From: a virus
Taxonomy: Duplodnaviria > Caudoviricetes
Length of the DNA stretch: 64,000 nucleotides
Direction: 5' to 3' (one strand)
IMG/VR virus record: IMGVR_UViG_3300021378_000015
Coordinates: 1 to 64,000 of that record
Shown here: in pieces, positions 3,272 through 61,105 of the stretch
Position numbering within the stretch: the stretch's first letter is position 1
Layout: the number at the start of each line of letters is the position of its first letter
Translations under genes and position numbers: made by a program
The notes under the pieces: generated by a model
What the model saw: only the letters and a program-made list of their open reading frames with translations
The model's database searches: none
What the model was told of the DNA's origin: nothing

Positions 3272-4249
3272 ATGGCATCACTTAGCGGAAATAAAATAAA
3301 GGATACTTTTAATCTACTCTTGAAACTTCAATCTTCAGAGGCATCAGCCACTGAGCAAGTTGTAGAAGATGGAGCAGGCAACGATACAGCGTTAAAGATA
3401 TCTACAGATACAGTAGAGACTACGGGATCCCTGAAAATATCTGGGACACCATCTACATCCACATCAAACACTACGGCTCTTATGCTCGATGGTAGTGGCG
3501 TTGTTGTAACACGTAACCTCAGCACCAGCCCAATTGGTACTGCATCGATCACAGCAAATACACCGCTATCTGCAACAGGTAGCACTATTGAGTTAAAAGA
3601 CCCAGCGCTACTAAGTCAAATCACTCAGCCGGCGACTAATGATAAGTATCTGATCTGGGATGAAAGCGCCAGTGCTTATAAATACATTGAGCAATCGGAT
3701 TTAGCAACGGCAGTAGGTAATTCTATAACCGCTGGTACGGCAACACAAGGCATCATGTATGCTCGTGCAGGAGCAACCTTACAAATGAGTAGTGCAGCGA
3801 CCAACACGCTTGTTCAGTACGCAGAGATATACGAGGACAGTTCGGCGACTGGTGCAACTACGGCAACTGGGAGTTCAGTATGGTTTGGTACACTGGCCAA
3901 TGGTGCCTCACAACCTGGATTATCTATTTCTCAAGTTTCTGATCCAAGAGATTCAGTTCTAATAAATGAGATTGAAGGGTGGTTTAAAATAACGGGAACT
4001 ATACAGGTAATACTAACTGCGGGTGCGGACTTTAATATAGAAGTTAATAGTACAATCATTCGGACGATAACGGTACCAGCAGTAGCCGGAGAAATAAGCA
4101 CATATACTCTTTCTGCTCTTTATTATTCCGATGGTGCATCAGGTTATAAAATTAGACTCACAGGTCAAGCCGACGGGTTAGGTGTTAACGTGTATGGAGT
4201 CAATACATCTCTTGAGGTTGAGTACATGGGTGATAACGCAACCTTATAA
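3272..4249 (+). CDS. Putative virion fibre or structural protein with beta-rich C-terminal domain
   Basis: Thr/Ser/Gly-rich; paralog 62818-63786 with conserved N-half and diverged C-half. Confidence 0.65.
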   Translation: MASLSGNKIKDTFNLLLKLQSSEASATEQVVEDGAGNDTALKISTDTVETTGSLKISGTPSTSTSNTTALMLDGSGVVVTRNLSTSPIGTASITANTPLSATGSTIELKDPALLSQITQPATNDKYLIWDESASAYKYIEQSDLATAVGNSITAGTATQGIMYARAGATLQMSSAATNTLVQYAEIYEDSSATGATTATGSSVWFGTLANGASQPGLSISQVSDPRDSVLINEIEGWFKITGTIQVILTAGADFNIEVNSTIIRTITVPAVAGEISTYTLSALYYSDGASGYKIRLTGQADGLGVNVYGVNTSLEVEYMGDNATL

Positions 4250-4554
4250 TGACAAAACAAGAAAGATTAGAATTCTTCCAGCAGTTAAGATTAAAACTTG
4301 ACGAGATCGATGATCTTATGGATTCCTATGGCGGTAAAGAAGAGTTCCTATCTATGTATTGTTTTGGTGCGTTTTTACCTGGAGACGAAGACCTTGATAC
4401 CAATGACAGGTATGAGTTTATGTGCGGCATGCATATGTCCGCAATAGAGGAATATGAATTAATGACAGATACAGTAGAAGATACTTTCACTAATTATTTA
4501 CAAGATGAAAGTGACAGAGGGGATTCCTCTTCAATTGACTACTGGTTAAATTAA
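4249..4554 (+). CDS. Hypothetical acidic protein
   Basis: TAATG-coupled; paralog from 63786. Confidence 0.8.
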   Translation: MTKQERLEFFQQLRLKLDEIDDLMDSYGGKEEFLSMYCFGAFLPGDEDLDTNDRYEFMCGMHMSAIEEYELMTDTVEDTFTNYLQDESDRGDSSSIDYWLN

Positions 4555-4799: not shown

Positions 4800-5359
4800 T
4801 TGTAATTGATAATTTTATAAAAGACCAAGATCTTTTGATGGATCTTGAACTTAACAAAGAATACCTATTTAGTGATAACGGATCTTACTACTGGTGGAAC
4901 GGATGGTGGAACTCACCAGACGATACATTAAAGAAAAGACTAATCTGTTATATATGGAGAGACTATCCTCCGTATGGATCTGTTTCTTTAGATGGCTTTG
5001 AGTACTGGACCGGACAATACGGTGAAGGTAAAGGAGTGTCTAACCTAAATATGCACTTAGACAAAGACGAAGACTTATGGAAAACAACGGGTGAAATAAA
5101 AGCCCCTATCATAGGTACAGTGTTCTATCCTGTTGAAATGGACATAGAAGGTGGTTATCTTGAGATATTCTCTAATGGTCCTGACAATGAGCCTGAAAGA
5201 ATTCAAGCAAAGTATAATAGGTTAATCATATTTGACGCAGGTAACATACATCACAGAGTTACAACTGTGACCAAAGGAACAAGATCTGCTATTGCAATAA
5301 ATCTTTGGGATGAAGCACCTACAACAAAATTAAAGTTTGAGGCTCCAGAACCAATATGA
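4796..5359 (+). CDS. 2OG-Fe(II) oxygenase (prolyl-hydroxylase-like)
   Basis: HLD...GGYL...NRLIIFD..HRV...RSAI: HxD..H triad plus 2OG-binding Arg. Confidence 0.85.
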   Translation: MIVIDNFIKDQDLLMDLELNKEYLFSDNGSYYWWNGWWNSPDDTLKKRLICYIWRDYPPYGSVSLDGFEYWTGQYGEGKGVSNLNMHLDKDEDLWKTTGEIKAPIIGTVFYPVEMDIEGGYLEIFSNGPDNEPERIQAKYNRLIIFDAGNIHHRVTTVTKGTRSAIAINLWDEAPTTKLKFEAPEPI

Positions 5360-6006: not shown

Positions 6007-6274
6007 CATAGTTACAGCGCAAAGATTAGTTGCAGCGATGGATATCGCGATTGACAACATGATTGCTGAAATACAAAAGCCTGTAGATCAGGAACTTAGC
6101 GGATCTCAAAGAAAGGCCGAACTTCAGTCAATTAAAATTACCGCTGTTGACGCTAAAGAACTTATTGTTGAAAGAGAAAGACTTGAACAACTCATTAAGA
6201 CACTTAAAGAAAGTGGGCAAATTAAAGAAGAGCAAGACTATTCAGGAGGATTCGCAGAAAAATTCTCAAAGTAA
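5978..6274 (+). CDS. Putative terminase small subunit
   Basis: Helical 98 aa immediately upstream of TerL, ends GGFAEKFSK. Confidence 0.55.
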   Translation: MAKSSKQKHNIVTAQRLVAAMDIAIDNMIAEIQKPVDQELSGSQRKAELQSIKITAVDAKELIVERERLEQLIKTLKESGQIKEEQDYSGGFAEKFSK

Positions 6275-6305
6275 TCAAGTCTTCATCTACTGGGATTATT
6301 AAACA

Positions 6306-8408
6306 ATGGCGGGACTTGTAGAAATAGAAGATGAGATTGTAATAAATATCTGCCCTGACAAAACTTCCGGAGACGTCAGGCTATACTTTGACTTACCCAT
6401 ACAGTTCCCTAAGCAGCCAGCCAAGAAAGATATACTTTTTAATAATTTAAAAAAAGAAGATCAGAGATGGGTGAGAGAGGGACTTCCTGATGATATCAAA
6501 AAGATCCGGTCAATGGAAGAATGGCTTGGGATGCCGGAATCATTTAGAAAAAAGTTCACACCCTATATAAGCGAAGAATTTAAAAGACGTAGAGATGGAG
6601 TATGGTTTTACAACAACGGGGTACCTACCTATATCACAGGTAACCATTACTTCTTCTTACAGTGGTGTAAGATCGATATTGGATACCCATCATTCCTCGA
6701 CTTTCAAAGGAAACTATTCGTACATCTTGAAGCCTGTATAAGAGATCCAAGATGTGTTGGACAGATCTATGTGAAGTGTCGTCGTTCTGGATACACAAAT
6801 ATGTCCGCATCTATACTCGTCAATGAAGGAACCCAGGTAAAAGAAAAATTATTGGGCATCATGTCGAAGACAGGAACAGATGCACAAGAAAATATATTCA
6901 TGAAGAAGGTGGTGCCTATGTATAAGTCGCTACCTTTTTTCTTTAAACCTATACAAGACGGTACTACCAACCCCCGTATGGAACTCGCATTTCGTGAGCC
7001 ATCAAAAAGAATCACAAAGAAAAATAAGACATCTTCTTCTGGTGAAGCACTCAATACAATTGTAAACTGGAAGAACACTACAACCAATGCATATGATGGG
7101 GAAAAACTCCATATGCTATACTTGGATGAAGCGGGTAAGTGGGAAAAGGGAAACGACATAAGAGAAGCCTGGAGGATACAGCGTACTTGTTTGTTGGTTG
7201 GTCGTAGAATAGTAGGCAAGGCTCTTGTTGGTAGCACCGTTAATCCTCTGGACAGAGGCGGTAAACAATTTAGAGATCTGTATGGTGCAAGTGATCCAAG
7301 GGAAAGAAATGACAATGGGCGTACACGTAGCGGACTGTACTCTGTCTTTATACCGTCTTACGATGCCCTTGAGGGCTTCTTTGATAGGTATGGGATGCCA
7401 GTGGTCGAAGATCCAGAGAAAACTCTTTACACGGAGTATGAGGAGCCTATATCTATAGGAGCAAAGACTTACTTAAAAAACGAACGCAAAGCACTGGTAA
7501 ACGATTCTTATGAACTCAACGAGGTAATACGCCAGTTCCCATTCACTGAAGCAGAGGCATTTAGAGATAGCGCCAAAGCCTCTCTGTTTAATGTGCAAAA
7601 GATTTACGAACAGATAGAATACAATGATGATCTATATCCTTCTCCAATTGTAGTAGGAAACTTTGTTTGGTCTGGCGGTAAGCAGGACACAGAAGTTATG
7701 TTTAAGCCTGATCCAAATGGAAGATGGCGTGTAGCATGGATGCCTCCTTCTGATTTGAGAAACAAAACCAAACCCGATAACGCTTGGATTGGATGTGCCG
7801 GTGTGGATAGTTATGACATCGATGCAACAGTAGATGGAAGAGGATCAAAGGGCGCCTGTCACTTCTATAATAAATTCAACATGGGTCACCCATCGAATAT
7901 GTTTGTTGCTGAATATGCTTCTCGACCACCTCTTGCTAAAATATTTTATGAGGATGTATTGATGGCGGCTAAGTTTTATGGATACCCTGTGTTAATTGAA
8001 AACAATAAGTACGGTATCGCAAGGTACTTTGAGACAAGAGGTTACGATCATTTCTTAATGGAAAGACCAGAGCATTTAGGTTCTAAATTTCAAAGCACTA
8101 AAACTAAAACCAAGGGTATACCATCGAATTCAAAGGATGTTATACAGGCTCATGCTCAAGCGATCGAAGCATATATACATGACCATGTTGGACTCAATGA
8201 AGATACTCTTGAGTTTGGCAAGATGTACTTTGAGCGAACACTGGAGGACTGGGTTAATTTTAAAATAGATGACAGGACTAAGTATGACCTTTCCATATCA
8301 AGCGGGTTGGCATTACTTGCTGCTCAAGGACATAAGCCTGTTAAAGTAAAAAGTGATTTCGAAAAGAAGCAATTCTTCAGAAAGGGTCAGATAATTATAC
8401 GAAAATAA
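6306..8408 (+). CDS. terL: Terminase large subunit
   Basis: KCRRSGYT Walker A, LYLDEAGK Walker B, GVDSYD nuclease, IENN, KYD. Confidence 0.92.
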   Translation: MAGLVEIEDEIVINICPDKTSGDVRLYFDLPIQFPKQPAKKDILFNNLKKEDQRWVREGLPDDIKKIRSMEEWLGMPESFRKKFTPYISEEFKRRRDGVWFYNNGVPTYITGNHYFFLQWCKIDIGYPSFLDFQRKLFVHLEACIRDPRCVGQIYVKCRRSGYTNMSASILVNEGTQVKEKLLGIMSKTGTDAQENIFMKKVVPMYKSLPFFFKPIQDGTTNPRMELAFREPSKRITKKNKTSSSGEALNTIVNWKNTTTNAYDGEKLHMLYLDEAGKWEKGNDIREAWRIQRTCLLVGRRIVGKALVGSTVNPLDRGGKQFRDLYGASDPRERNDNGRTRSGLYSVFIPSYDALEGFFDRYGMPVVEDPEKTLYTEYEEPISIGAKTYLKNERKALVNDSYELNEVIRQFPFTEAEAFRDSAKASLFNVQKIYEQIEYNDDLYPSPIVVGNFVWSGGKQDTEVMFKPDPNGRWRVAWMPPSDLRNKTKPDNAWIGCAGVDSYDIDATVDGRGSKGACHFYNKFNMGHPSNMFVAEYASRPPLAKIFYEDVLMAAKFYGYPVLIENNKYGIARYFETRGYDHFLMERPEHLGSKFQSTKTKTKGIPSNSKDVIQAHAQAIEAYIHDHVGLNEDTLEFGKMYFERTLEDWVNFKIDDRTKYDLSISSGLALLAAQGHKPVKVKSDFEKKQFFRKGQIIIRK

Positions 8409-8415
8409 TAAGAAG

Positions 8416-8423
8416 TATATTTG
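8416..8423 (+). promoter_or_regulatory. Bacteroidota -7 promoter element
   Basis: TATATTTG 20 nt upstream of the portal ATG. Confidence 0.6.
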
Positions 8424-8443
8424 CATAAGTAGCAATCTCAAGT

Positions 8444-10876
8444 ATGGATAACCAATATAAATCAGGACAGTCTTCCTTTCCAGACGCTTTAGCAGGCACA
8501 GAGGAAAAGATGTCTATGCCTTATGGCTTGCAATATGCAAAGGCCATGTTCGCTCAATGGGTTGGGAGTGACTATCAAAATTCATTATACGGCAGAAGAA
8601 ATACAGAAATGGAACGCTGTAGAGACTATGCTCAGGGAACTCAAGACACGTCTATATACAGACAGATTCTAAATTCTCTTGACCCTAATAACGGGGATGG
8701 AACATTATTAACTCTTGATTACACACCTGTTCCAATCGTTCCAAAGTTTGTAAAGATTGTTGTAAACAAAATATTATCTAAAGAGCCTTATCCACAAATA
8801 CAGGCAATAGACCCTCTTTCAAGATCAGAAAAAGATAAAAAGAAAGCCGCTACTATTTTACGTATTGAAAACCGTAACATAATAGAAGAGGCTAAAGCAC
8901 TTGGTTTAAATGTTTCAGTAGATCCAAATGAACTACCGGAAACACCAGAGGAAACAGAAATATTTCTTGACACAAATATCAAAACTGACGCTGAGATATC
9001 TGCACAGATTGCTACTGAACTGACTCTCAAGTGGAACAACTTTAATGAATCTATATATCGCCGTTGTGTTGAAGACTTGGCCACACTTGGTATGGCTGTG
9101 GCTAAACGTACTAATGATCCTAACTATGGCATCAAAGAAGAATATGTTGATCCAAAACGGTTTGTCCATAACTATACTGATGATCCGAACTTTGGGGACC
9201 TGACATATGCTGGACACTTTAAGTTCATAACCATAATGGAACTCAAGCGTATTGCCGGTGATCAGTTTACTGAAGCGCAATACGAACAGATTGCAAAGAC
9301 CGTAATGAACAAGTACGGAAACAATCCGACTCAATTTAGTTCTGCTGGATATACTTATGATCGTCCAGGAACACGTTACCGTCAGGGATACGATGAGTAC
9401 AAGGTTGAAGTTATGGACTTTGAGTTCATGTCTGTTGACAACATCATATACGAGAAGAAAGAATCTGCTTATGGGAACATAGGCTTTTATTACAAAGGGA
9501 CAGAGTACAATGCTCCTCAACAATCGGTATACGATCGAGAAGCAATGTACATGAGTAACGCTACTGTATACGGAGGTACTTACATTGTGGGTACAGAGTT
9601 AATGTTTGACTACGGTCCTAAGAAAAACATACCTAAGAACGTACACGATATATCCCGTGCTACATTATCATACAGCGCCATTGCAACAAACATTAGAGGA
9701 ATGATTCCTAAATCAATGGTTTCCTCTGTTATTGGGTTTGCTGATATGTTACAAATCACACACCTCAAGATTCAACAATCTATTGCTAAGGCAAAGCCTG
9801 ATGGTTTGATCATAGATATCGAGGGCTTAGAGAATGTACAACTTGGTAGAGGTGGAGAACTTCAACCATTAGAGATTCAAGACATATACGAACAAACTGG
9901 TATCTTCTATTACAGAAGTAAAAATCCAGAAGGTGGATTCCAAAACCCACCGGTTCGCGAAATAGGAAATGCTATCAGAAACATCACAGAATTGGTTGCT
10001 ATATACAATCACTATCTAAGGATGATTAGAGACGCCACAGGGATCAATGAGGTCATGGATGGAACTTCACCCAAGGGAGATGCTCTTGTGGGCGTTAGAC
10101 AGCAGCAAATAGCCGCAGGTAACAATGCTATATATGATATTACTAACGCTGCTATGGTTCTTTACAAAAAGGTTTGTGAAGACGTTGTGAAATGTTTACA
10201 GATTATACCACCAAAAAGTATTCTTTACAAGGCATATACTAATGCTATTGGAGAAACAAACATGGCGGTGATAACCTCGTTTGATAATCTATCTATGTAC
10301 AACTTTGGAGTAATGGTTGTTACAGAAATGGGTGAGATGGACAAGGCCTATTTAGAACAAAATATTCAAATAGCGCTTGCTCAAAAAGAAATTGATCTTG
10401 AGGATGCTATTGCGATCAGACAAATAAAGGATGTTGAGCAAGCCGAAAGATTATTGGTTGTTCGTCGCAAGAAGCGTATGAAGCAGCAGCAACAAATAGC
10501 GGCTCAAAATATGCAGATGCAAGCACAGGCAAATGCAGAGTCATCACAAGTTGCAGGTCAGATTGAAATGCAGAAAAAACAAATGGAGGCTCAGATAGAA
10601 GCACAGCGCATTCAATTAGAGACCCAAGCAAAAGCACAACTGTTGGAACTTGAATATCAATACAAGATTCAATTAGAAAACATAAAAGGAGAGTACGGTA
10701 TTGTTGAACAACAAATTGAGAGTGGGGTAAAGCAACAAGAGCAGGCAGTATCAGAGAACCGTAAAGATGCTCGAATAGATAAGCAGGCTGCTGCTCAAAG
10801 TAAATTAATCGCTCAACGTCAAGGAGAGAGACCCCCAATGGAAGAAGAAGTAATAACAAACTTAACCCTATCGTAA
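8444..10876 (+). CDS. Portal protein
   Basis: 810 aa after TerL; PVPIVPKFV, IRDATGINE..DG, Gln-rich coiled-coil C-terminus. Confidence 0.88.
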   Translation: MDNQYKSGQSSFPDALAGTEEKMSMPYGLQYAKAMFAQWVGSDYQNSLYGRRNTEMERCRDYAQGTQDTSIYRQILNSLDPNNGDGTLLTLDYTPVPIVPKFVKIVVNKILSKEPYPQIQAIDPLSRSEKDKKKAATILRIENRNIIEEAKALGLNVSVDPNELPETPEETEIFLDTNIKTDAEISAQIATELTLKWNNFNESIYRRCVEDLATLGMAVAKRTNDPNYGIKEEYVDPKRFVHNYTDDPNFGDLTYAGHFKFITIMELKRIAGDQFTEAQYEQIAKTVMNKYGNNPTQFSSAGYTYDRPGTRYRQGYDEYKVEVMDFEFMSVDNIIYEKKESAYGNIGFYYKGTEYNAPQQSVYDREAMYMSNATVYGGTYIVGTELMFDYGPKKNIPKNVHDISRATLSYSAIATNIRGMIPKSMVSSVIGFADMLQITHLKIQQSIAKAKPDGLIIDIEGLENVQLGRGGELQPLEIQDIYEQTGIFYYRSKNPEGGFQNPPVREIGNAIRNITELVAIYNHYLRMIRDATGINEVMDGTSPKGDALVGVRQQQIAAGNNAIYDITNAAMVLYKKVCEDVVKCLQIIPPKSILYKAYTNAIGETNMAVITSFDNLSMYNFGVMVVTEMGEMDKAYLEQNIQIALAQKEIDLEDAIAIRQIKDVEQAERLLVVRRKKRMKQQQQIAAQNMQMQAQANAESSQVAGQIEMQKKQMEAQIEAQRIQLETQAKAQLLELEYQYKIQLENIKGEYGIVEQQIESGVKQQEQAVSENRKDARIDKQAAAQSKLIAQRQGERPPMEEEVITNLTLS

Positions 10877-10877
10877 T

Positions 10878-11276
10878 ATGGCTTGCGGATGCTCAAATAG
10901 TCCATGTTCATGTCCTAACCCGACAAACTTAAATATGAACAACGCTGCACAGTTAAATATCTGTACGCGTCGTGGAGACACGTTTATCTTAAACTCTGTT
11001 GTAGCATCCTCGAATGGTGTGAAGTTAGATCTTACTCTATACTCTTTTAAAATGGAAGTTAGAGAATATGACAATGGACCACTGGTTATAACCAATACCG
11101 ATATAACTACCACTGGAGATATCAATGGAAATCTCGTGGTGACTATAACAGCGGCTAATATGCAGGTACCAGCAGGTACATATGTATATGGTTTTCAATC
11201 AACACTTACATCTGCTGGCACTGTTGAGACTTGGTTCTATGGAACCTTTGAAGTAGTGCAGGACATCGTAACATAA
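10878..11276 (+). CDS. Putative fibre adaptor (BppU/DUF2479-like beta sandwich) with Cys-rich N-terminus
   Basis: RRGDTF..DLT.Y..MEVR..GTYVY..GTFEV; MACGCSNSPCSCP. Confidence 0.55.
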   Translation: MACGCSNSPCSCPNPTNLNMNNAAQLNICTRRGDTFILNSVVASSNGVKLDLTLYSFKMEVREYDNGPLVITNTDITTTGDINGNLVVTITAANMQVPAGTYVYGFQSTLTSAGTVETWFYGTFEVVQDIVT

Positions 11277-49496: not shown

Positions 49497-50104
49497 TATT
49501 CTTTCAGATTAAATTCGAAATGATTCTTGAAGGGATCTCTGCTAGAACTGGTGCGCATGTCTATAGCATACACGTCATCAAACTCTTGATAGACTAGGTA
49601 CTCTCTGCTCTCAAGTAATTCCCTCATGGATGCCCATCCATTTGCAACGTGCTTGTGCTCTGCCTTAATCAGTTTGGGTCGCAACGCACCCTCGTATGCA
49701 ACTTGATTAAGGATAACCAAGTCATGCCCTTCGGTGTCGATTTTTAAGAAGTCGATCTGGCTTATACCAGACTCCTTTATCATGTCGTCATAGGTAATTG
49801 ATTCAACTAACCTTGACTCCACTAGGTTCTTGTTGCCCTTGAGAGTGTACTCAGAGAACGAACTCATGCCCGCAAAGTCTCTGTCTTTTTCAATGACAGA
49901 CTGCTTGAATACATCCATCTGTCTTGAGCCTCTACTCACATCAATCGCGCAGTTCATGTACGTTACACCATCGTGCTTCTCTAAGTTGTTTAGGTACTCT
50001 TGTACCGGCTCAATGATAACTCCTGTCCACCCATTCTTACCTAGGTCATTCAGTGTGTTAAAATCACAACTACCTATCTCAACAAAACATTTAGTAGCAC
50101 TCAT
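49496..50104 (-). CDS. FkbM-family methyltransferase
   Basis: FVEIGSCD, GWTGVIIEP, IDFLKIDTEGHD; start set at MSATK. Confidence 0.87.
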   Translation of the reverse strand: MSATKCFVEIGSCDFNTLNDLGKNGWTGVIIEPVQEYLNNLEKHDGVTYMNCAIDVSRGSRQMDVFKQSVIEKDRDFAGMSSFSEYTLKGNKNLVESRLVESITYDDMIKESGISQIDFLKIDTEGHDLVILNQVAYEGALRPKLIKAEHKHVANGWASMRELLESREYLVYQEFDDVYAIDMRTSSSRDPFKNHFEFNLKE

Positions 50105-50546
50105 GAAGCGTCTCTGATTTGTGATAGTACTCATCGGGTGCAAAATATATGTAAGGCAACAGCGTTTCACCTTCGGGTGTGACCGCCCCTCGTCTCTTTC
50201 TTTTATACCAATCGGGGTGTCCTTCTAACATATCCAATTGTTTAAGTTCATCCTCCGATACTAAGTATAGTTCTACATCTACGTTGAATCCAACACCAGG
50301 CTTCTCTACGAGAAAGGGTAGTCCTGATCCATGTACTACCATAGGGTATTGTCTCTCTGTCTTTGCATTCGAAACGTATACAGCATTGCTTAGTAGTATG
50401 TTGTTACCAAAGCCACGCTTCAGTGTACCGTATACAGCGATTAGAATATCACGCAGTTCTTCGTTATCACTTCCTTGTACCACCACTCTACGTCCTCCTT
50501 CTGCTTCGCGCTGAAGATTGGGTTTATTCCTTTGTTTAGTTGCCAT
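50091..50546 (-). CDS. Gamma-glutamylcyclotransferase (AIG2-like); start uncertain
   Basis: IAVYGTLKRG..N, ELY.V, LDMLEGHP.WY.R. Confidence 0.85.
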   Translation of the reverse strand: MATKQRNKPNLQREAEGGRRVVVQGSDNEELRDILIAVYGTLKRGFGNNILLSNAVYVSNAKTERQYPMVVHGSGLPFLVEKPGVGFNVDVELYLVSEDELKQLDMLEGHPDWYKRKRRGAVTPEGETLLPYIYFAPDEYYHKSETLHECY

Positions 50547-55493: not shown

Positions 55494-55724
55494 TTACTCA
55501 ACTCTATCGTTTATAATTTTATCAATACTATCTCGTAACTCTTTAGAGAGCAGTTCGGTAGGCAAGTACACAAGGTTACCCTCGTGGTCATACATACTCA
55601 CCTCCAGATCTTCCACCTCATGTTCGGTGTAAGGTGGCGTGTCGTATGTACCTTCATCTCGGTACACAGCAACAGTGGCCACCACGTTCAACGTGTTGTC
55701 TTTGTATTCTAATTCAAATTCCAT
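55494..55724 (-). CDS. Hypothetical acidic protein
   Basis: GTYDTPP motif; TAATG-coupled. Confidence 0.7.
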   Translation of the reverse strand: MEFELEYKDNTLNVVATVAVYRDEGTYDTPPYTEHEVEDLEVSMYDHEGNLVYLPTELLSKELRDSIDKIINDRVE

Positions 55725-56605
55725 TACGCTATATCTTTAAGGTCATCACCCTCGTAGCCACACTCAAGGCTTGTCCATAATTCCATGACCTCATCGACTG
55801 CATCGAGTTGGTATGCACTACAATTCATACACTCTGCGTTGAAGTTTATCTTCGTGTTTTGTGTGCCACATCCTACGCAGTCATACGTTCCTTGCAGTGG
55901 TGCTTCAGTGTCGTATGCTATGTCATCTAACTCATCGGTAGTAGTTACACCAAAGGATGCGTTCCAAGAATCCACATCGGCCTTGTCATCATCCCAATCG
56001 TAGGTGTACTGGCTCGATCCTGTGACGGCTGTGCTTCCGTAGTATCGTACGGCACGTGAATGGCTGTCGTTACTGAACCAATTGTCACCAATCCATGAGC
56101 CTGCACCCTCATTGAATATGCGGTACAACCCCTCGTTGTCCATGAACACCACCTTACTTGAGCCACCCAAGTATGTGAAGATTGCATCCTCGATAAAGGG
56201 GTTGTCGAGCATCTCAATATCTACGTTGGGTATGGTGCCCACAAGTTCTGCGAACTCGGCAGTGTCACTCTTGTCCTTAGTTCCGAACCCCGAAATAACA
56301 CCGTTGTGTATGAGTCCAAGTGTAGGTGTCACAGCGAATGGGTGTAGGTACTCGTCACTCATACCGTGTGTAGCGATACGGAAGTGCAAGAGCATGGGCT
56401 TGTCACCCACATCGGAAGTCTTGAGTTCGCGGTAACGCTCAAGGAATTTGTCAAACGAGTTGCCCCCCTTGTTAGGGAACTTCTCGATACACAACAAGCC
56501 ATCCATGATGTAGAGCATACCGGCCCCATCATCGTTGTTGTTCCAACAGTTCTTTAGTTTTTTCTTAGGTAACATCTTACCATCATTCATAATTGCAATA
56601 CACAT
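55724..56605 (-). CDS. Class II (Ntn) glutamine amidotransferase
   Basis: Start MCIAI (Cys nucleophile), NDDGAG, HFRIATHG, HPF, HNGVI, SDT. Confidence 0.88.
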   Translation of the reverse strand: MCIAIMNDGKMLPKKKLKNCWNNNDDGAGMLYIMDGLLCIEKFPNKGGNSFDKFLERYRELKTSDVGDKPMLLHFRIATHGMSDEYLHPFAVTPTLGLIHNGVISGFGTKDKSDTAEFAELVGTIPNVDIEMLDNPFIEDAIFTYLGGSSKVVFMDNEGLYRIFNEGAGSWIGDNWFSNDSHSRAVRYYGSTAVTGSSQYTYDWDDDKADVDSWNASFGVTTTDELDDIAYDTEAPLQGTYDCVGCGTQNTKINFNAECMNCSAYQLDAVDEVMELWTSLECGYEGDDLKDIA

Positions 56606-56658
56606 AAGCATAGTTGTGCGGTTATATCCCATCGCACTCTTCGGTTTCGGTTATATAA

Positions 56659-58035
56659 TTATTTTTGTTCTTCAAGAAGTTTATCCATCGCCTCCAAAGT
56701 AGGTTGCGCATCAGTCACGTAGTTCATACCGAACTTGTCTCGCAGTCTATCCACCGCCTCACTTGAGTACGACACGATAGTACGTGGGTCTACCTTGCGG
56801 TTCTTCAATCTACGCACAGCACTCTTGTAGAATACACCTACACCATCAGCACTAAAATTGAATGAACCGTACAAGTCATCGGCAAACTGAGCGTATAGGC
56901 TCACTACCTTCAGCACTTGGTCATTCGAGTACACCTTACGCAAGTGAATACCCAATGCACTCTTAGGATTGAGCATCATAGTAATCAATTGCAACGGCTT
57001 GATGTTCTCGTTAGCACACATAATACGCATCAGATCCCTACGCCATAGCAGGTTGGTCACGTTCTTGAACGCAGGTGGTAAGCGGAACTCAATGTATCTA
57101 CTTTGAATGTTGACCGCTGAATACTTGCCGGCACGCTTGTAGTTGTCCGGCTTACGTTGTATTTGCGAGTAGTGGTTAGTAATCCGGTGTCTCCATATAG
57201 TTAGAAACAACGGCACGAATGCTTGAATCGAATCGAAAAATTCCTCACCCGATATACCGCGCTTACCTACATTGATGTGTCCACCACAATTACTGCCGTA
57301 GTCAGCGTTGATATGGTCACGAAGTATTCGGCCCTCCAAAGCACTGTCTAACAGCGGGTCATTCAAGTCATAGATTGGACTGACTAATTCAAAGCCGGTC
57401 TCATCGCATAGGCTACTATCCGACTCGCGGCACCACCCTGTCTCATCCACAGCATCCAAGTCCCACGTATCTAACGGGTCATCATCTTCCTTCTCGACCT
57501 CGAAGCCGATTGTGTACACAGTGTCACGTGAAGTGAAGTCCCTGCGAAACCCACTATGGTATTCATGCAGTTGGCGGTCATTCTCCTCTTGAAGTCGGTA
57601 CTCCTCATTGCGCTCACTCCAAAAGATATTCGAACCACAATCATCAATGTGGTACGTGCCCCCATCTTCCTCGCAGTACAGCGTGTCATCTGTCCAACAC
57701 CACCCGCCTTCGTACATACTGTACGCCCCATCTATGTAGGAAACACTGCACTCATTGTCGTAGTCTGGCCACCATATCTTGTCACCACACACAAGTGTTT
57801 TTACATCTGACACGTACTCGTCATTAAGTATGGTGACTCTATTGAAACCCCCATCGTGGTGCAACATAGGTCTATCACACATCGCTTCTCGAGCAAACTC
57901 TCCCTCGTACTCGCTCGGTGCTGTAAGCATTAAGCAGTCATCTAAATTCTCGACTTCGCCGTTAAAACAAACGACTTGTCCATCTTTCAATTCATCCATA
58001 GGCATATGTTTATGTGCATCATTAGCCCTGCACAT
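56659..58035 (-). CDS. Putative amidoligase (COOH-NH2 ligase type 2)
   Basis: IGFEVE, DSSL, GFELVSP, CGGHINV, KYSAVN, IEFR. Confidence 0.82.
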   Translation of the reverse strand: MCRANDAHKHMPMDELKDGQVVCFNGEVENLDDCLMLTAPSEYEGEFAREAMCDRPMLHHDGGFNRVTILNDEYVSDVKTLVCGDKIWWPDYDNECSVSYIDGAYSMYEGGWCWTDDTLYCEEDGGTYHIDDCGSNIFWSERNEEYRLQEENDRQLHEYHSGFRRDFTSRDTVYTIGFEVEKEDDDPLDTWDLDAVDETGWCRESDSSLCDETGFELVSPIYDLNDPLLDSALEGRILRDHINADYGSNCGGHINVGKRGISGEEFFDSIQAFVPLFLTIWRHRITNHYSQIQRKPDNYKRAGKYSAVNIQSRYIEFRLPPAFKNVTNLLWRRDLMRIMCANENIKPLQLITMMLNPKSALGIHLRKVYSNDQVLKVVSLYAQFADDLYGSFNFSADGVGVFYKSAVRRLKNRKVDPRTIVSYSSEAVDRLRDKFGMNYVTDAQPTLEAMDKLLEEQK

Positions 58036-58041
58036 TTAGGC

Positions 58042-58152
58042 TTAGGGGACTGCATGGGACTCGAACCCATAGTACACCCAAACACCACGTTATAAACCAA
58101 AACCAAAAGACTTGGTGCTTGTGTAGCAGTCCGTTTATAGTGTGGTCTCCAC
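58042..58152 (-). ncRNA. tRNA-like structured element 1
   Basis: GGACTGC/GCAGTCC 7-bp stem, ATGGG-TTCGAGT-CCCAT T-arm, one long internal hairpin, no D or anticodon arms. Confidence 0.65.
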
Positions 58153-58168
58153 TACCAAATCATCCCTA

Positions 58169-58214
58169 CAAACATAGGGTAACTATCTGACAATCAGCGT
58201 TAAAGAAATGTTAA
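58169..58214 (-). promoter_or_regulatory. Early promoter TATGTTTG with TTAACA-N5-TTAACG box
   Basis: Boxes at 58209-14 and 58198-203, 21-nt gap, then -7 element 58169-76. Confidence 0.7.
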
Positions 58215-58235
58215 AACTCATTCTCAACCTTCGGT

Positions 58236-58400
58236 TCAACGTATGAGCGATCGGATAATACCTACGTCTACCGTACCGTACTTGTCATGTACCTTACATA
58301 GGTACGCCCAAGCCTCGCGTATTTCCTTCTCGCTCCCTCTCCTTCTGCCGGTGTGTATAGCAACAGCCCGGCTCAGTCTTTGTAACTCATTCATGCTCAT
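58236..58400 (-). CDS. Small hypothetical protein (54 aa)
   Basis: MSMNELQRLSRAVAIH..; starts right after element 2. Confidence 0.5.
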   Translation of the reverse strand: MSMNELQRLSRAVAIHTGRRRGSEKEIREAWAYLCKVHDKYGTVDVGIIRSLIR

Positions 58401-58410
58401 TCACATTTGT

Positions 58411-58499
58411 TTAGGGGACTACGAGTGTCTCGCTCACTCAGTGCAACAGGGGCATAGGTATCCCCTTTGCAGGTAGTCCGTTGTAGGTGTGGTCACCAC
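58411..58499 (-). ncRNA. tRNA-like structured element 2
   Basis: GGACTAC/GTAGTCC stem, GAGTG-AGCGAGA-CACTC arm, internal hairpin TGCAA-AGGGG/CCCCT-TTGCA; flanks shared with element 1. Confidence 0.6.
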
Positions 58500-58517
58500 C
58501 ATCCAAAAAGTACAGTT

Positions 58518-58739
58518 CTATTTCCGCTTTGCCCTACGGGTTTCACGTTGGGCTTGTGCCCTGTATACCTTGCGGTCAATCCGGTCAGCGTACATGTTTT
58601 CAAGTGCATCGGCTTTCATCTTACCCCGAACCTTGCGCTTACTTGCACTTGCAGTCTTACCGCCCAGAGTCGGTGCGCTCACCACTCGGACTACGTACTC
58701 ATAGCCCTTGTGGTTGCGTTGTGTTGCGAAATTCCCCAT
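58518..58739 (-). CDS. Hypothetical basic early protein
   Basis: TAATG-coupled. Confidence 0.6.
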   Translation of the reverse strand: MGNFATQRNHKGYEYVVRVVSAPTLGGKTASASKRKVRGKMKADALENMYADRIDRKVYRAQAQRETRRAKRK

Positions 58740-58975: not shown

Positions 58976-59418
58976 AAGGCAATCGTTTTTAGTTTTCGGT
59001 TATCGTTTCAACACCACAAACAACCAACAAGATTTTTTAATAATATCACAACAAAATGTTAAAATCCCTGCGCATTATGCCCACCAATTTTCCTGCGTAC
59101 ATACAGGATCAGGCGTCGCGCGATGCTGCTTCACGCGTAAGGGAAGGGTCGAGTCAGTCCATCCCGTGATGAGCAAGTCCATGACTTGCGAAGGCGTGTG
59201 TGTATGTATGTGTACGCGCGTCACTCGCGCGCATAGCACGAAGGAATGGTTCACATTTGAGATTTCGCATTCTAAGGGGGTGTGGTGCTTCTCGAATGGA
59301 GTCCGAGGTATGGGAGGTAGGGGATTGCCGAGATAGTATAGAGATATCCCCCTACCACTACGTAGTAGGGGGTATATCTATAGAAAATAATTGACAAATC
59401 CAAATGAAAAAACACGCT

Positions 59419-59459
59419 TTAACAAAACTTTAACAGCACGTTTTAACAAGGCTTTAACA
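59419..59459 (+). repeat. Four TTAACA direct repeats (spacing 11, 13, 11)
   Basis: At 59419, 59430, 59443 and 59454. Confidence 0.8.
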
Positions 59460-59709
59460 GAAAATTTTTGTATTCATGTGTGTAGGCGTATGTGTGCGCA
59501 GGCAGGGGCGCAGGCGTGCCCGAGCGCAGGCGTGCAGGCGCGAGTGTGTATGTATGTACAGGTGCGCGTGTGTGTGCGTATGTGTGTGCGCGCGTGCATG
59601 GGTTGATTCTTCCCACCCTTTTATATATCAACCCCCTACCGAGCGTGTACATGTGAGCGCATACAGGATCTGGCGTGCGCATAATGCACACGTAAGATAG
59701 AAACACACT

Positions 59710-59755
59710 TTAACAAGGCGTTAACACTTTACAGCGAAATAACCCCCTATGTTTG
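59710..59755 (+). promoter_or_regulatory. Early promoter TATGTTTG with TTAACA-N5-TTAACA box
   Basis: Boxes at 59710 and 59721, 21-nt gap, -7 element 59748-55. Confidence 0.72.
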
Positions 59756-59778
59756 CGGTGTAACCAAAACGAAATACG

Positions 59779-60204
59779 ATGAAAAATTACAACGACAGAA
59801 CGATTGAACTACTACGTAGGGACATGGAAGCCTTCGACAAGCAAGTGCGTGACTGCGTAGTGTACATGTACGACTCGATTGTGAACCACGAAGTGAATGC
59901 AATTACTAAAGACTACCTACCGGTAGTTAAACTGATTGAAATTGTCAATGAAGTTGCCGATGCGCTCGACCTTGTGCATGATGTGTGCAAGGTGACCCAT
60001 GAGCACCTGTGTCACATGAGCCTAGTGTACTCGTACTGCGACTTTGCACATGGCCATGATACACGAATGGAAGTTGTTTGTGAACTGATTGGAACAATAC
60101 TCACTGATGAGGTAGAAATGTCCACTCGTTCGATTTACAGCCCTACATTCGAAGTTCTCGATGAAGGCTCACACTTGCAGGTGTACACAGAACACATGGA
60201 CTGA
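59779..60204 (+). CDS. Hypothetical protein, monocistronic early gene
   Basis: Own promoter and terminator; 141 aa. Confidence 0.8.
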   Translation: MKNYNDRTIELLRRDMEAFDKQVRDCVVYMYDSIVNHEVNAITKDYLPVVKLIEIVNEVADALDLVHDVCKVTHEHLCHMSLVYSYCDFAHGHDTRMEVVCELIGTILTDEVEMSTRSIYSPTFEVLDEGSHLQVYTEHMD

Positions 60205-60225
60205 GCCTACATGATGCACACACGA

Positions 60226-60254
60226 AGCCCCGCCATTGAGCGGGGTTTTTTTTT
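60226..60254 (+). terminator. Intrinsic terminator
   Basis: agccccgc-cattga-gcggggtt plus T run. Confidence 0.85.
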
Positions 60255-61105
60255 GCCCCAATCGAAAAACAACCGTTGCGCGGGGGCATTATGCGCGAGG
60301 GGATCAGGCGCGCTCAGACCTGCGCGAGCGTGCATACATATGGGCCTATGCGTTACACATATACGCGAGGCTATTTTAAGCCGTTCTAAGGGCTTTTCTC
60401 CTCTTGGGTGGTGTGTTGGTATTGTTGGCGGTAATGGATTCGCTAGGCGTTCTCTTGGGGTGGTCAGTGTGCCTCCAATGGTGGGGCGTGGGGTTGTGGT
60501 TTCCTTGTGGGGTTGTGTATGGGCGTGATTTGTTCCCCCCCTCATATGTACGGGGGGCGGGTGGGGGCTGTACGGGTCACCCATGGGGGCGTGTGTGTAC
60601 TACGTGTGTGCACATAGGCGTGCCGGTGTACGTACGTGCTCGCGTAGGTGCGCTCGTGCTCGTGCACAAACGCCCAAACCTGTGCGCGTGTTCGCTTGTA
60701 TGCATGCCCCCCCGTTCGTGCGGATGCGTTCGGGTGCGCGCGCGCTGGCGTCCATATAATATATTATCCCCACCAGAAACATTTCTCAGCAATTTTTACG
60801 GATCAGGAGTAATGGCCCGTGTTGTTTCAACTGATGTGCCGAATCGATACCCCCATAACAAAACACCCCCCGATAAACGGAGGGTATTTCTTGTCGCTGT
60901 AATACGCGAAGCATGCGAAAAATTTGAGCAAATTAGGGGCCCTTTGAAACTTTCTACTGTCTTGTTGTGTTCTGAGTTTCTTCTTTAGTCGTTTTGAATC
61001 CACTTACGCTGTTGCTGTGGATTAATAACTTTGTGACCCATAAGTCGTAAGACGGTGGAAAGGTACAAGAAAAAAATGATAAAGTCAATAGTAGTAAATA
61101 CCCAA

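Follow-up and report, generated by a model that had tools for sequence, protein, structure and literature searches.

RESULTS

Two tRNA top-half-like elements at the head of a minus-strand gene block

The window analyzed here, meaning the whole stretch of 64,000 nucleotides (nt) under study, is the first 64 kb of the 81,340-bp IMG/VR virus record IMGVR_UViG_3300021378_000015, and it contains two short elements, el2 and el1, whose predicted folds imitate the acceptor/T-arm half, or "top half", of a tRNA. Both are read on the minus strand, as the original prediction had described and as inspection of the sequence bears out. Followed along that strand, the locus comprises a gene for a 73-amino acid (aa) basic protein ending in ...QRETRRAKRK (58518 to 58739), whose stop lies 18 nt before the first copy of a 24-nt box (58476 to 58499); el2 (58416 to 58479); an uncertain 54-aa open reading frame (ORF; 58236 to 58400), in whose place close relatives have a different ORF; host-type promoter signals (58169 to 58214); the second copy of the box (58129 to 58152); el1 (58047 to 58132); a predicted H-type pseudoknot (58012 to 58042); and a 448-aa gene (56659 to 58005). 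The locus stands at the head of the leftward, replication-side block of genes, which extends on the minus strand from about 59.0 kb to 43.9 kb, and the elements precede genes, as claimed earlier. The label "early" that went with this claim is not supported as written, since it was inferred from position only.

The shorter element, el2 (64 nt), consists of the acceptor 5′ strand GGACTAC (58473 to 58479), a 30-nt hairpin with the 9-nt loop ATACCTATG (58442 to 58471) followed by CT, the T-arm GAGTG-AGCGAGA-CACTC (58423 to 58439), and the acceptor 3′ strand GTAGTCC (58416 to 58422), behind which comes the tail CCTAA (58411 to 58415). The longer element, el1 (86 nt), repeats this layout with the acceptor 5′ strand GGACTGC (58126 to 58132), a 53-nt hairpin (58073 to 58125) whose U/G-rich loop of about 20 nt holds TTGGTTTTGGTT and which is again followed by CT, the T-arm ATGGG-TTCGAGT-CCCAT (58054 to 58070), the acceptor 3′ strand GCAGTCC (58047 to 58053), and the tail CCTAA (58042 to 58046). 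In the minimum-energy fold of each element, a 7-bp stem closes the structure and encloses one long hairpin and, directly next to the stem's 3′ strand, a 5-bp/7-nt hairpin, so that a 7-bp acceptor stem and a directly adjoining 5-bp T-stem with a 7-nt T-loop are present in both and would form a coaxial stack of about 12 bp. Shuffled sequences seldom fold as well (3 of 200 for el1, z = −2.25; 1 of 200 for el2, z = −3.58), and the whole 81-kb record holds exactly two copies. Neither element has a D arm or an anticodon arm (5-bp stem with 7-nt loop), a single hairpin occupying their place, and CCA is not encoded directly after the discriminator. The T-loop of el1, TTCGAGT, is canonical and that of el2, AGCGAGA, is not. 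In all these respects the original prediction, which had noted the canonical loop of el1 and the missing arms and CCA in both elements, was accurate.

The structure is maintained by covariation in divergent phages

To collect relatives, we scanned IMG/VR and JGI metagenome contigs for exact patterns and added a protein-anchored scan. After removal of duplicates this yielded 132 instances of the upstream motif, each with at least 120 nt of downstream sequence, 38 of which are chance hits in GC-rich coding sequence. A covariance model (R1) was searched against the fetched loci, and the resulting alignment (A7) is fitted to that model; part of the alignment set was chosen by a descriptor for which pairing is a requirement. 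In close relatives (group I), both elements are present and their order is the same. A second set of loci (group II; L025, L030, L048, L041, and L045 with their metagenome twins) has clearly homologous elements with quite different stem sequences, for example, the acceptors GGGGTGT/GCACCCC or GGGGGTA/TACCCCC and the T-stems GGTGG/CCACC or CCGTG/CACGG.

Pairing is nearly complete at every level of comparison. Among the seven el2-type sequences (A3), 97.4% of the cells are paired and 6 of 22 pairs have changed on both sides, a value reached in none of 500 shuffles; for the acceptor, T-arm, and first pseudoknot stem of 17 el1-type sequences (A4), 97.8% are paired and 4 of 16 pairs have changed, with 3 of 500 shuffles as high. 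Across all types, the MAFFT alignment of 36 sequences (A6) has 97.9% of its cells paired, compared with 74.4% in shuffled and 30 to 48% in slid alignments, and both partners have changed in 10 of its 12 pairs (0/500 shuffles). The 82 matches to model R1, 45 of them distinct and all on uncultured phage contigs, give the same picture as the MAFFT-only alignment, with 97.7% of 524 cells paired (32 to 48% in the slid controls), 10 of 12 pairs changed on both sides (118 cells), and again no shuffle among 500 as high. Members of the family score 27 to 76 bits with R1 (el1, 72.4 bits; el2, 71.9 bits), and real tRNAs in the control loci score 18 to 24 bits, with the exception of an 83-nt tRNA-Lys in a tRNA array (L119), which reaches 44 bits. 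The compensatory G-C/A-U swap between the two acceptor stems, located at pair 6, and the pairing of the two unlike T-stems had already been pointed out from the window, and this covariation goes on in the relatives. The original proposal of a new structured RNA family is supported; the family covaries and has no match in Rfam.

At least 11 G-U cells in the helices (per-pair table of A7) would become A-C on the opposite strand. The structure should therefore belong to RNA or single-stranded DNA of the minus strand. The length of the stack is held when the boundary between its two stems shifts (6 + 6 bp in L003 and L009, 7 + 5 bp elsewhere in group I) and comes to 11 to 13 bp in group II. The middle domain, by comparison, ranges from 14 nt (L041 and L045) to about 60 nt, with the top half kept. 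The acceptor sequence itself varies widely between groups (GGACUGC, GGGGUGU, GGAUGUG, and GGGUUGC), the proteins encoded next to the structure are only about 50% identical across the phages that keep it, and the tails read N-C-N-A-A throughout the family except in L003 and L011, which have C-CCA after the stem.

Two variants were seen among the relatives. The first element of L009 (6010 to 6256, minus strand), as well as those of its near copies L234 and L235, keeps the box, the acceptor 5′ strand, and the hairpin, followed by a folded insert of about 135 nt and the T-arm GGGGG-TTCGATT-CCCCC, with no matching acceptor 3′ strand. In L139, an el2-type variant (4811 to 4897, minus strand) has an extra CCAACCAACC, whose complementarity to the TTGGTTTGGTT loop in the contig's el1-type element is almost complete; this may reflect a loop-loop contact or chance.

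A predicted pseudoknot separates el1 from the start codon

The segment AAATGTG behind el1 had been read as a signal shared by the two elements. Instead, it forms one strand of a predicted H-type pseudoknot, whose stem S1 pairs AGCCT (58038 to 58042) with GGGCT (58024 to 58028) and whose stem S2 pairs ATGTGCA (58029 to 58035) with TGCACAT (58012 to 58018). The pseudoknot starts 4 to 5 nt past the acceptor stem and ends 6 to 9 nt before a conserved ATG (58005). Every one of the 14 distinct el1-type regions is followed by it, as are both first-type regions of group II; it follows none of the 17 el2-type regions, and it was found in 8 of 660 shuffled regions. As MAFFT gave no register across subgroups for stem S2 and for the long hairpin of el1, these were assessed with per-sequence folds and a script. 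Both stems vary in concert from phage to phage: the two strands of S2 change together (ATGTGCA/TGCACAT, GTGTGTA/TACACAC, and TATGTGTA/TACACATA), and S1 of L045 reads, by eye, GCGGAC/GTCCGC.

The gene after el1, which has no known family, would encode 458 aa if begun at its first ATG (58035). Judged from the sequence ATGCCTATGGAT at its start, which relatives keep, the true start is most likely the ATG at 58003 to 58005, 6 nt past the pseudoknot. Farther homologues of the 458-aa gene (L021 and L022) have neither a box nor a tRNA-like module upstream.

The elements resemble tRNA without matching tRNA or tmRNA models

No Rfam family matched the 64-kb window at the gathering score, and at an E value of ≤10 over positions 57900 to 58600 only chance-level snoRNA, CRISPR, and miRNA matches appeared, the tRNA and tmRNA models remaining silent. 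ARAGORN calls el1 a tRNA-Gln(UUG) and does not call el2, and in 13 related loci it makes no tRNA call for the relatives. Their likeness to tRNA was assessed by scanning 185,579 species genomes with the T-arm and acceptor 3′ strand of el1, one position being left free and one restricted to pyrimidines. Of the nine places matched, six lie inside tRNAs called by ARAGORN, namely, Asp(GUC) in a Saprospiraceae metagenome-assembled genome (MAG), Asp in a Peribacteria MAG, Lys in two records, and Val in one; a Taibaiella match falls in a 3′ fragment that resembles tRNA-Asp and has two tRNA-Asp genes as neighbors, and the remaining two fall on archaeal contigs without a tRNA call. The Taibaiella fragment (L118, a Taibaiella lutea contig, 7930 to 8000) is a tRNA-Asp 3′ half with an inserted hairpin, about 1 kb past the two intact genes, and resembles the scar left by, or the border of, an element that integrated in tRNA-Asp.

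On this comparison, el1 is similar in its 3′ half to genuine tRNA-Asp of Bacteroidota. The U/G-rich loop of el1-type hairpins usually contains TTGGTT(A), recalling the D-loop of the matched tRNA-Asp genes, and the N-C-N-A-A tails resemble their CCA-less trailers (G-CAA...), a resemblance based on two genes only. Most likely, the elements derive from a captured tRNA gene. They are not working tRNAs, because the D and anticodon arms are missing, nor decaying copies, because covariation persists across divergent phages. We also considered and rejected tmRNA: there is no G3-U70 pair (pair 3-70 is A-U in 34 and G-C in 11 of the 45 distinct sequences), no CCA (the tail being CCTAA), no internal tag frame, and no tmRNA call by ARAGORN or Rfam.

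An invariant box and a small basic protein accompany the elements

The original prediction had treated GTGGNGACCACAC-N4-AAC as part of the tRNA mimic. Comparison of the loci indicates that this upstream "hairpin" is instead a separate, invariant 24-nt box, which also stands before quite different leaders. Its two copies in the window read GTGGTGACCACAC (58499 to 58487)-CTAC-AACGGAC before el2 and GTGGAGACCACAC (58152 to 58140)-TATA-AACGGAC before el1. In general form the box is GTGG-N-GACCACAC, N4 (sometimes N6), and AACGGA(C), with the letters invariant in 35 distinct instances; even in a scan that left its first five letters free, GTGG recurred in every match that was not a chance hit. The acceptor stem overlaps the box, and the GGACT of the acceptor stems in the window is therefore fixed. 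Complete genomes of 59 to 67 kb carry the box one to two times, always pointing toward downstream genes. It precedes at least six unrelated kinds of folded leader, which in many phages have no likeness to tRNA and several of which close on GGAC (box-bearing loci: L025, L029 to L032, L036, L040, L043, L053, L062, L067, L072 to L080, L086, and many of L123 to L236). Conversely, tRNA-like modules without a box occur in L041 (3292 to 3373) and L032 (12240 to 12329). A 35-nt box probe found no match in GenBank phages by blastn.

The copy of the box before el1 is preceded by host-type promoter signals, consisting of TTAACA (58209 to 58214), TTAACG (58198 to 58203), and the −7 box TATGTTTG (58169 to 58176). 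A Bacteroidota-type −7 box, TAnnTTTG, lies 24 to 30 nt before the box in all 19 el1-type instances; elsewhere it was found in 1 of 19 el2-type instances, 0 of 6 group II first-type instances, 1 of 48 other leaders, and 1 of 37 chance hits.

The copy before el2 is instead tied to the 73-aa protein. Relatives of this protein are 62 to 109 aa long, share an invariant C-terminal QR..RRAKR (consensus end, ...QR(D/E/N)xRRAKR), and comprise 83 cluster representatives at an E value of ≤0.001 in a library of 1.8 billion proteins. The protein matches no Pfam or PHROG family and has no usable atlas match; neither it nor a distant relative matched GenBank phages, and a single-protein scan started from the distant relative P0063 found nothing. 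An ORF with the QR..RRAKR tail has its stop 10 to 50 nt before the box in 17 of 18 el2-type, 6 of 6 group II first-type, and 35 of 43 other-leader instances, or 58 of 67 first positions overall, compared with 0 of 19 second positions and 0 of 36 chance hits.

Host affinity and gene content of the phage

The record appears to describe an uncultured, podovirus-like phage of about 60 kb with Bacteroidota hosts of the Flavobacteriia type. Its large terminase (TerL; 6306 to 8408, plus strand) is closest to those of the Flavobacterium "elemo" podoviruses (41%) and of an uncultured 60.8-kb record (48%), with weaker matches to Cellulophaga and Bacteroides crAss-type phages. Bases 65554 to 70503 of the record are a second copy, 76% identical, of window positions 6031 to 10985 (the terminase-portal region); because this region recurs, the unit genome should measure about 59.5 kb, and the 81-kb record probably joins two strains. 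A 2.5-kb region had no match among GenBank phages.

The structural genes occupy the plus strand up to about 43.7 kb and include, besides the terminase, genes for a 2162-aa collagen-repeat protein and a 1686-aa protein whose C-terminal domain is of the crAss muzzle kind; a 2016-aa ORF on the same strand is a polyvalent-type protein that resembles the LPD type. The minus-strand block encodes a primase-helicase, an exonuclease, a methyltransferase, a RusA-like resolvase, glycosyltransferases, and a gamma-glutamyl cyclotransferase. Directly after el1 (55724 to 58005, minus strand), the 458-aa protein is followed by a 302-aa protein with a weak match to class II glutamine amidotransferases (E = 0.012, short of the cut-off). 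Together with the gamma-glutamyl cyclotransferase further along (50091 to 50546, minus strand), these two may form a small-molecule- or peptide-modifying set. On the other side of the locus, positions 59000 to 60800 are poor in ORFs (one small plus-strand ORF at 59779 to 60204) and contain low-complexity repeats of the CACACGCGC type, the recurring words GCGCATAATGC and CAGGATCNGGCG, and TTAACA-box promoters on both strands.

DISCUSSION

Candidate processing signals in phage messages

Viewed from their sequences and those of their relatives, el1 and el2 are genuine structures at the RNA level, and the family of phage tRNA top-half mimics to which they belong had not been catalogued before. For the function of these mimics, our preferred interpretation, to which we assign a probability of roughly 40%, is that they punctuate early RNA as cutting signals for the host's RNase P and RNase Z. 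The acceptor/T-arm minihelix with its elbow is recognized by bacterial RNase P, RNase Z, and the CCA-adding enzyme; because these enzymes read exactly the top half, tRNA processing is the most economical mechanism. There is also precedent, as mascRNA is excised from MALAT1 by RNase P and RNase Z, and the C4 RNA of phage P1 and the CI RNA of phage P4 are matured by RNase P. In the proposed scheme, the host's tRNA-maturation enzymes would read the elements as CCA-less pre-tRNAs, RNase P cutting just before G+1, after ...AAC, and RNase Z or 3′ trimming acting after the discriminator. The early transcript would thereby be punctuated, a small, stable tRNA-like RNA would be shed, and the downstream message would receive a defined 5′ end. 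Behind el1, this new end would be capped, 4 to 5 nt in, by the H-type pseudoknot, which would stop 6 to 9 nt before the AUG; bacterial mRNAs are shielded from RNase E by 5′-proximal structure. The 24-nt box in front would serve as a control site in its own right and act, whether at the DNA or the RNA level, together with the arginine-rich-tail protein encoded just upstream. We count in favor of this scheme the covariation, the G-U cells, the constant stack length alongside a variable middle, the modules that occur independently of the box, the tRNA-like 3′ half of el1, and the tight placement of the pseudoknot between module and AUG.

Several observations weigh against it. The T-loops of el2-type elements depart from the tRNA consensus (AGCGAGA and CTCGTGA), and the loops have no D-loop partner with which to build an elbow. 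The absence of the pseudoknot after all 17 el2-type regions means that the idea of a protected 5′ end fits only one of the two elements. Related phages carry quite different folded leaders behind the same box, and the function they have in common may thus be that of the box, or of closed 5′ domains in general, and not tRNA mimicry. The pairing-demanding descriptor used for part of the set inflates the percentage of paired cells, although homologous members found by the box alone all fold alike, save for the insert-bearing first elements of L009, L234, and L235. Lastly, among 24 public runs, the best of the RNA-library runs shared 6 to 9% of sampled words; in the four RNA-library runs examined, contigs of 90 to 95% identity cover positions 57946 to 58203, 57971 to 58165, and 58391 to 58529 and bridge both elements and boxes. 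This cover is low and nearly uniform over the whole 5 kb, may derive from DNA, and consists of contigs, which cannot show ends. A spike in depth at 59509 to 59675 stems from a low-complexity GT repeat.

Alternative explanations

The main competitor, which we find plausible if rather doubtful, is a cis-acting regulatory leader that is never cut. Here the box, the arginine-rich-tail protein, and a folded 5′ domain would make up one control unit, acting like the antitermination systems N/nut of lambda or put of HK022, or as a translation or transcription switch of delayed genes, and the tRNA shape would merely be one of several acceptable compact folds. Such a unit would account for the one or two boxes per complete genome, always facing downstream genes, for the other groups in which different closed domains begin with the same GGAC, and for the position of both copies: copy 1 lies 10 to 50 nt past the stop of a basic-tail gene in 58 of 67 cases (0 of 36 for chance hits), and copy 2 about 10 nt past the start expected from the host-type promoter (19 of 19), a nut- or put-like geometry. 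However, the short, 4-bp stem of the box does not covary, and its strict conservation, which fits recognition by a protein or of DNA, is no proof of an RNA hairpin. The protein belongs to no recognized family. Moreover, some tRNA-like modules have no box, and a 12-bp stack with a T-loop-like loop and an N-C-N-A-A tail is more specific than the requirement for any fold would lead one to expect. This reading and processing by tRNA enzymes could also both be true.

We consider it unlikely that the box is itself a promoter, of the single-subunit-polymerase or N4-type hairpin kind, with the structures marking the 5′ ends of its transcripts. A contiguous, invariant 24-nt motif present once or twice per genome has the appearance of one, the 17 nt of GTGGNGACCACAC-TATA followed by AACGGA recall the length and layout of promoters of either kind, and in many groups the folded domains begin 3 nt past the box. 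Yet no phage RNA polymerase was recognized among the ORFs scanned, although an N4-type enzyme could escape such searches; PF00940 was unmatched, though the control genomes are equally silent; and the 2016-aa ORF has neither a DxDxD motif nor a PDB relative. In addition, a host-type −7 box is already present just upstream of copy 2, and a spacer of either 4 or 6 nt would be unusual for such promoters.

It also seems improbable to us that the elements serve as decoys, that is, as released top halves, perhaps CCA-tailed, that soak up host factors or defense toxins acting on the acceptor end of tRNA. Conservation confined to the acceptor/T half, the two copies at the very start of a gene block, and the C-CCA encoded after the stem in L003 and L011 would suit this role, which is compatible with the processing model and in fact requires the prior release of the RNAs. 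Against it speak the wide variation of the acceptor sequence between groups, which is not expected from mimicry of one particular tRNA, and the pseudoknot and start codon that follow directly, as in an mRNA leader. The more specific suggestion of a decoy for anticodon nucleases, made in the original prediction, is unlikely because there is no anticodon arm.

More speculatively, and with little expectation of being right, one may envisage that the box, the arginine-rich-tail protein, and the top-half/pseudoknot leader are parts of a single, new system by which Bacteroidota phages control their early genes. The mimic would then recruit host machinery that handles tRNA (RNase P, EF-Tu, or the ribosome) to the 5′ ends of messages in hosts that make no use of Shine-Dalgarno pairing, and the pseudoknot, at the position of a Shine-Dalgarno site, would set the ribosome on the start codon; this would amount to a bacterial counterpart of a structured entry site of the internal ribosome entry site kind. 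Finally, an odd working tRNA, a decaying tRNA pseudogene, or an attP remnant is barely tenable: the tRNA-Gln(UUG) call and the tRNA-like 3′ half of el1 favor it, but the D arm and a 7-nt anticodon loop on a 5-bp stem are lacking, the call is repeated in 0 of 13 related loci, the Rfam tRNA and tmRNA models are silent at an E value of ≤10, compensatory change in 10 of 12 pairs across phages with about 50% identical neighboring proteins is not expected of decay, the 5′ strand covaries with the 3′ strand, unlike an att core, and no integrase was found among the ORFs scanned.

Relation to known tRNA-like elements

In that they place a tRNA-like fold inside a longer transcript, el1 and el2 are akin to the MALAT1- and NEAT1-type mascRNA elements and to GUT15 of Arabidopsis. 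In these (PMC12941219 and PMC6152437), RNase P and RNase Z are reported to yield a small tRNA-like RNA and the matured end of a long RNA; the same is proposed here. Those elements are eukaryotic and cloverleaf-like and lie at the 3′ end of long noncoding RNAs, whereas el1 and el2 come from a bacterial virus, have no D or anticodon arm, and are located 5′ of protein-coding genes. Among phage substrates of RNase P, the P1 C4 and P4 CI RNAs and the T4 species 1 RNA, together with intercistronic sites in operons, likewise use an acceptor/T-arm-like stack as a processing signal, but they have no sequence or family relation to the elements described here, and none of them is known to have the layout with one hairpin in place of two arms, a pseudoknot behind it, or the 24-nt box.

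The tRNA-like domain of tmRNA has the same topology, with an acceptor stem, one long helix replacing the anticodon and D arms, and a T-arm, and it also shares a pseudoknot shortly before an ORF. It differs in that pair 3-70 of el1 and el2 is A-U or G-C and not G-U, that a D-loop, CCA, and a tag frame between the acceptor strands are all missing from them, and that their ORF begins only after the whole domain has ended and does not lie within it. In Cellulophaga phage phi14:2 (NC_021806), a phage of the same host class as the one in the window, ARAGORN predicts a tmRNA in an early intergenic region (4031 to 4500, plus strand; tag GSSVQKLAMVA), with no Rfam match at the gathering score; a study of this phage describes the region as the source of an abundant long noncoding RNA of unknown function (10.1101/2020.03.07.982082).

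With the 3′ tRNA-like structures of plant viruses the elements share a tRNA mimic beside pseudoknots in viral mRNA. The plant virus structures, however, are 3′ terminal, CCA ended, and aminoacylatable, with pseudoknot domains upstream, while el1 and el2 are 5′ proximal and internal, and the pseudoknot lies downstream. The box and its protein recall lambda nut/N and HK022 put, where each genome has one or two short invariant sites that lie just past early promoters and are accompanied by a small arginine-rich protein and by folded RNA immediately downstream; the analogy does not extend to the sequence, the box comes after the small gene and not before it, and host-factor boxes and terminators were not identified. 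Full-text searches of the published literature returned no description of this top-half mimic family. tRNA mimicry is a recurring viral trick, and the family may, in kind, belong to viral tRNA mimicry and tRNA-like processing elements, the module of box and protein being perhaps its more original part.

Implications for gene regulation in Bacteroidota phages

To our knowledge, almost nothing is known about early gene expression in phages of Bacteroidota. The locus described here offers three linked, strongly conserved, and uncatalogued parts, namely, the covarying top-half module, the pseudoknot, and the box with its protein family. In a host group that does without Shine-Dalgarno initiation, the pseudoknot sits at a fixed distance of a few bases before the start codon. 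If RNase P and RNase Z cut the modules, they would constitute a "tRNA punctuation" system in a DNA phage; if the modules remain uncut, the pair of box and protein would be a candidate for a new antitermination or switch system. Either way, these parts would open early regulation to testing in a large group of marine and freshwater phages that are so far uncultured.

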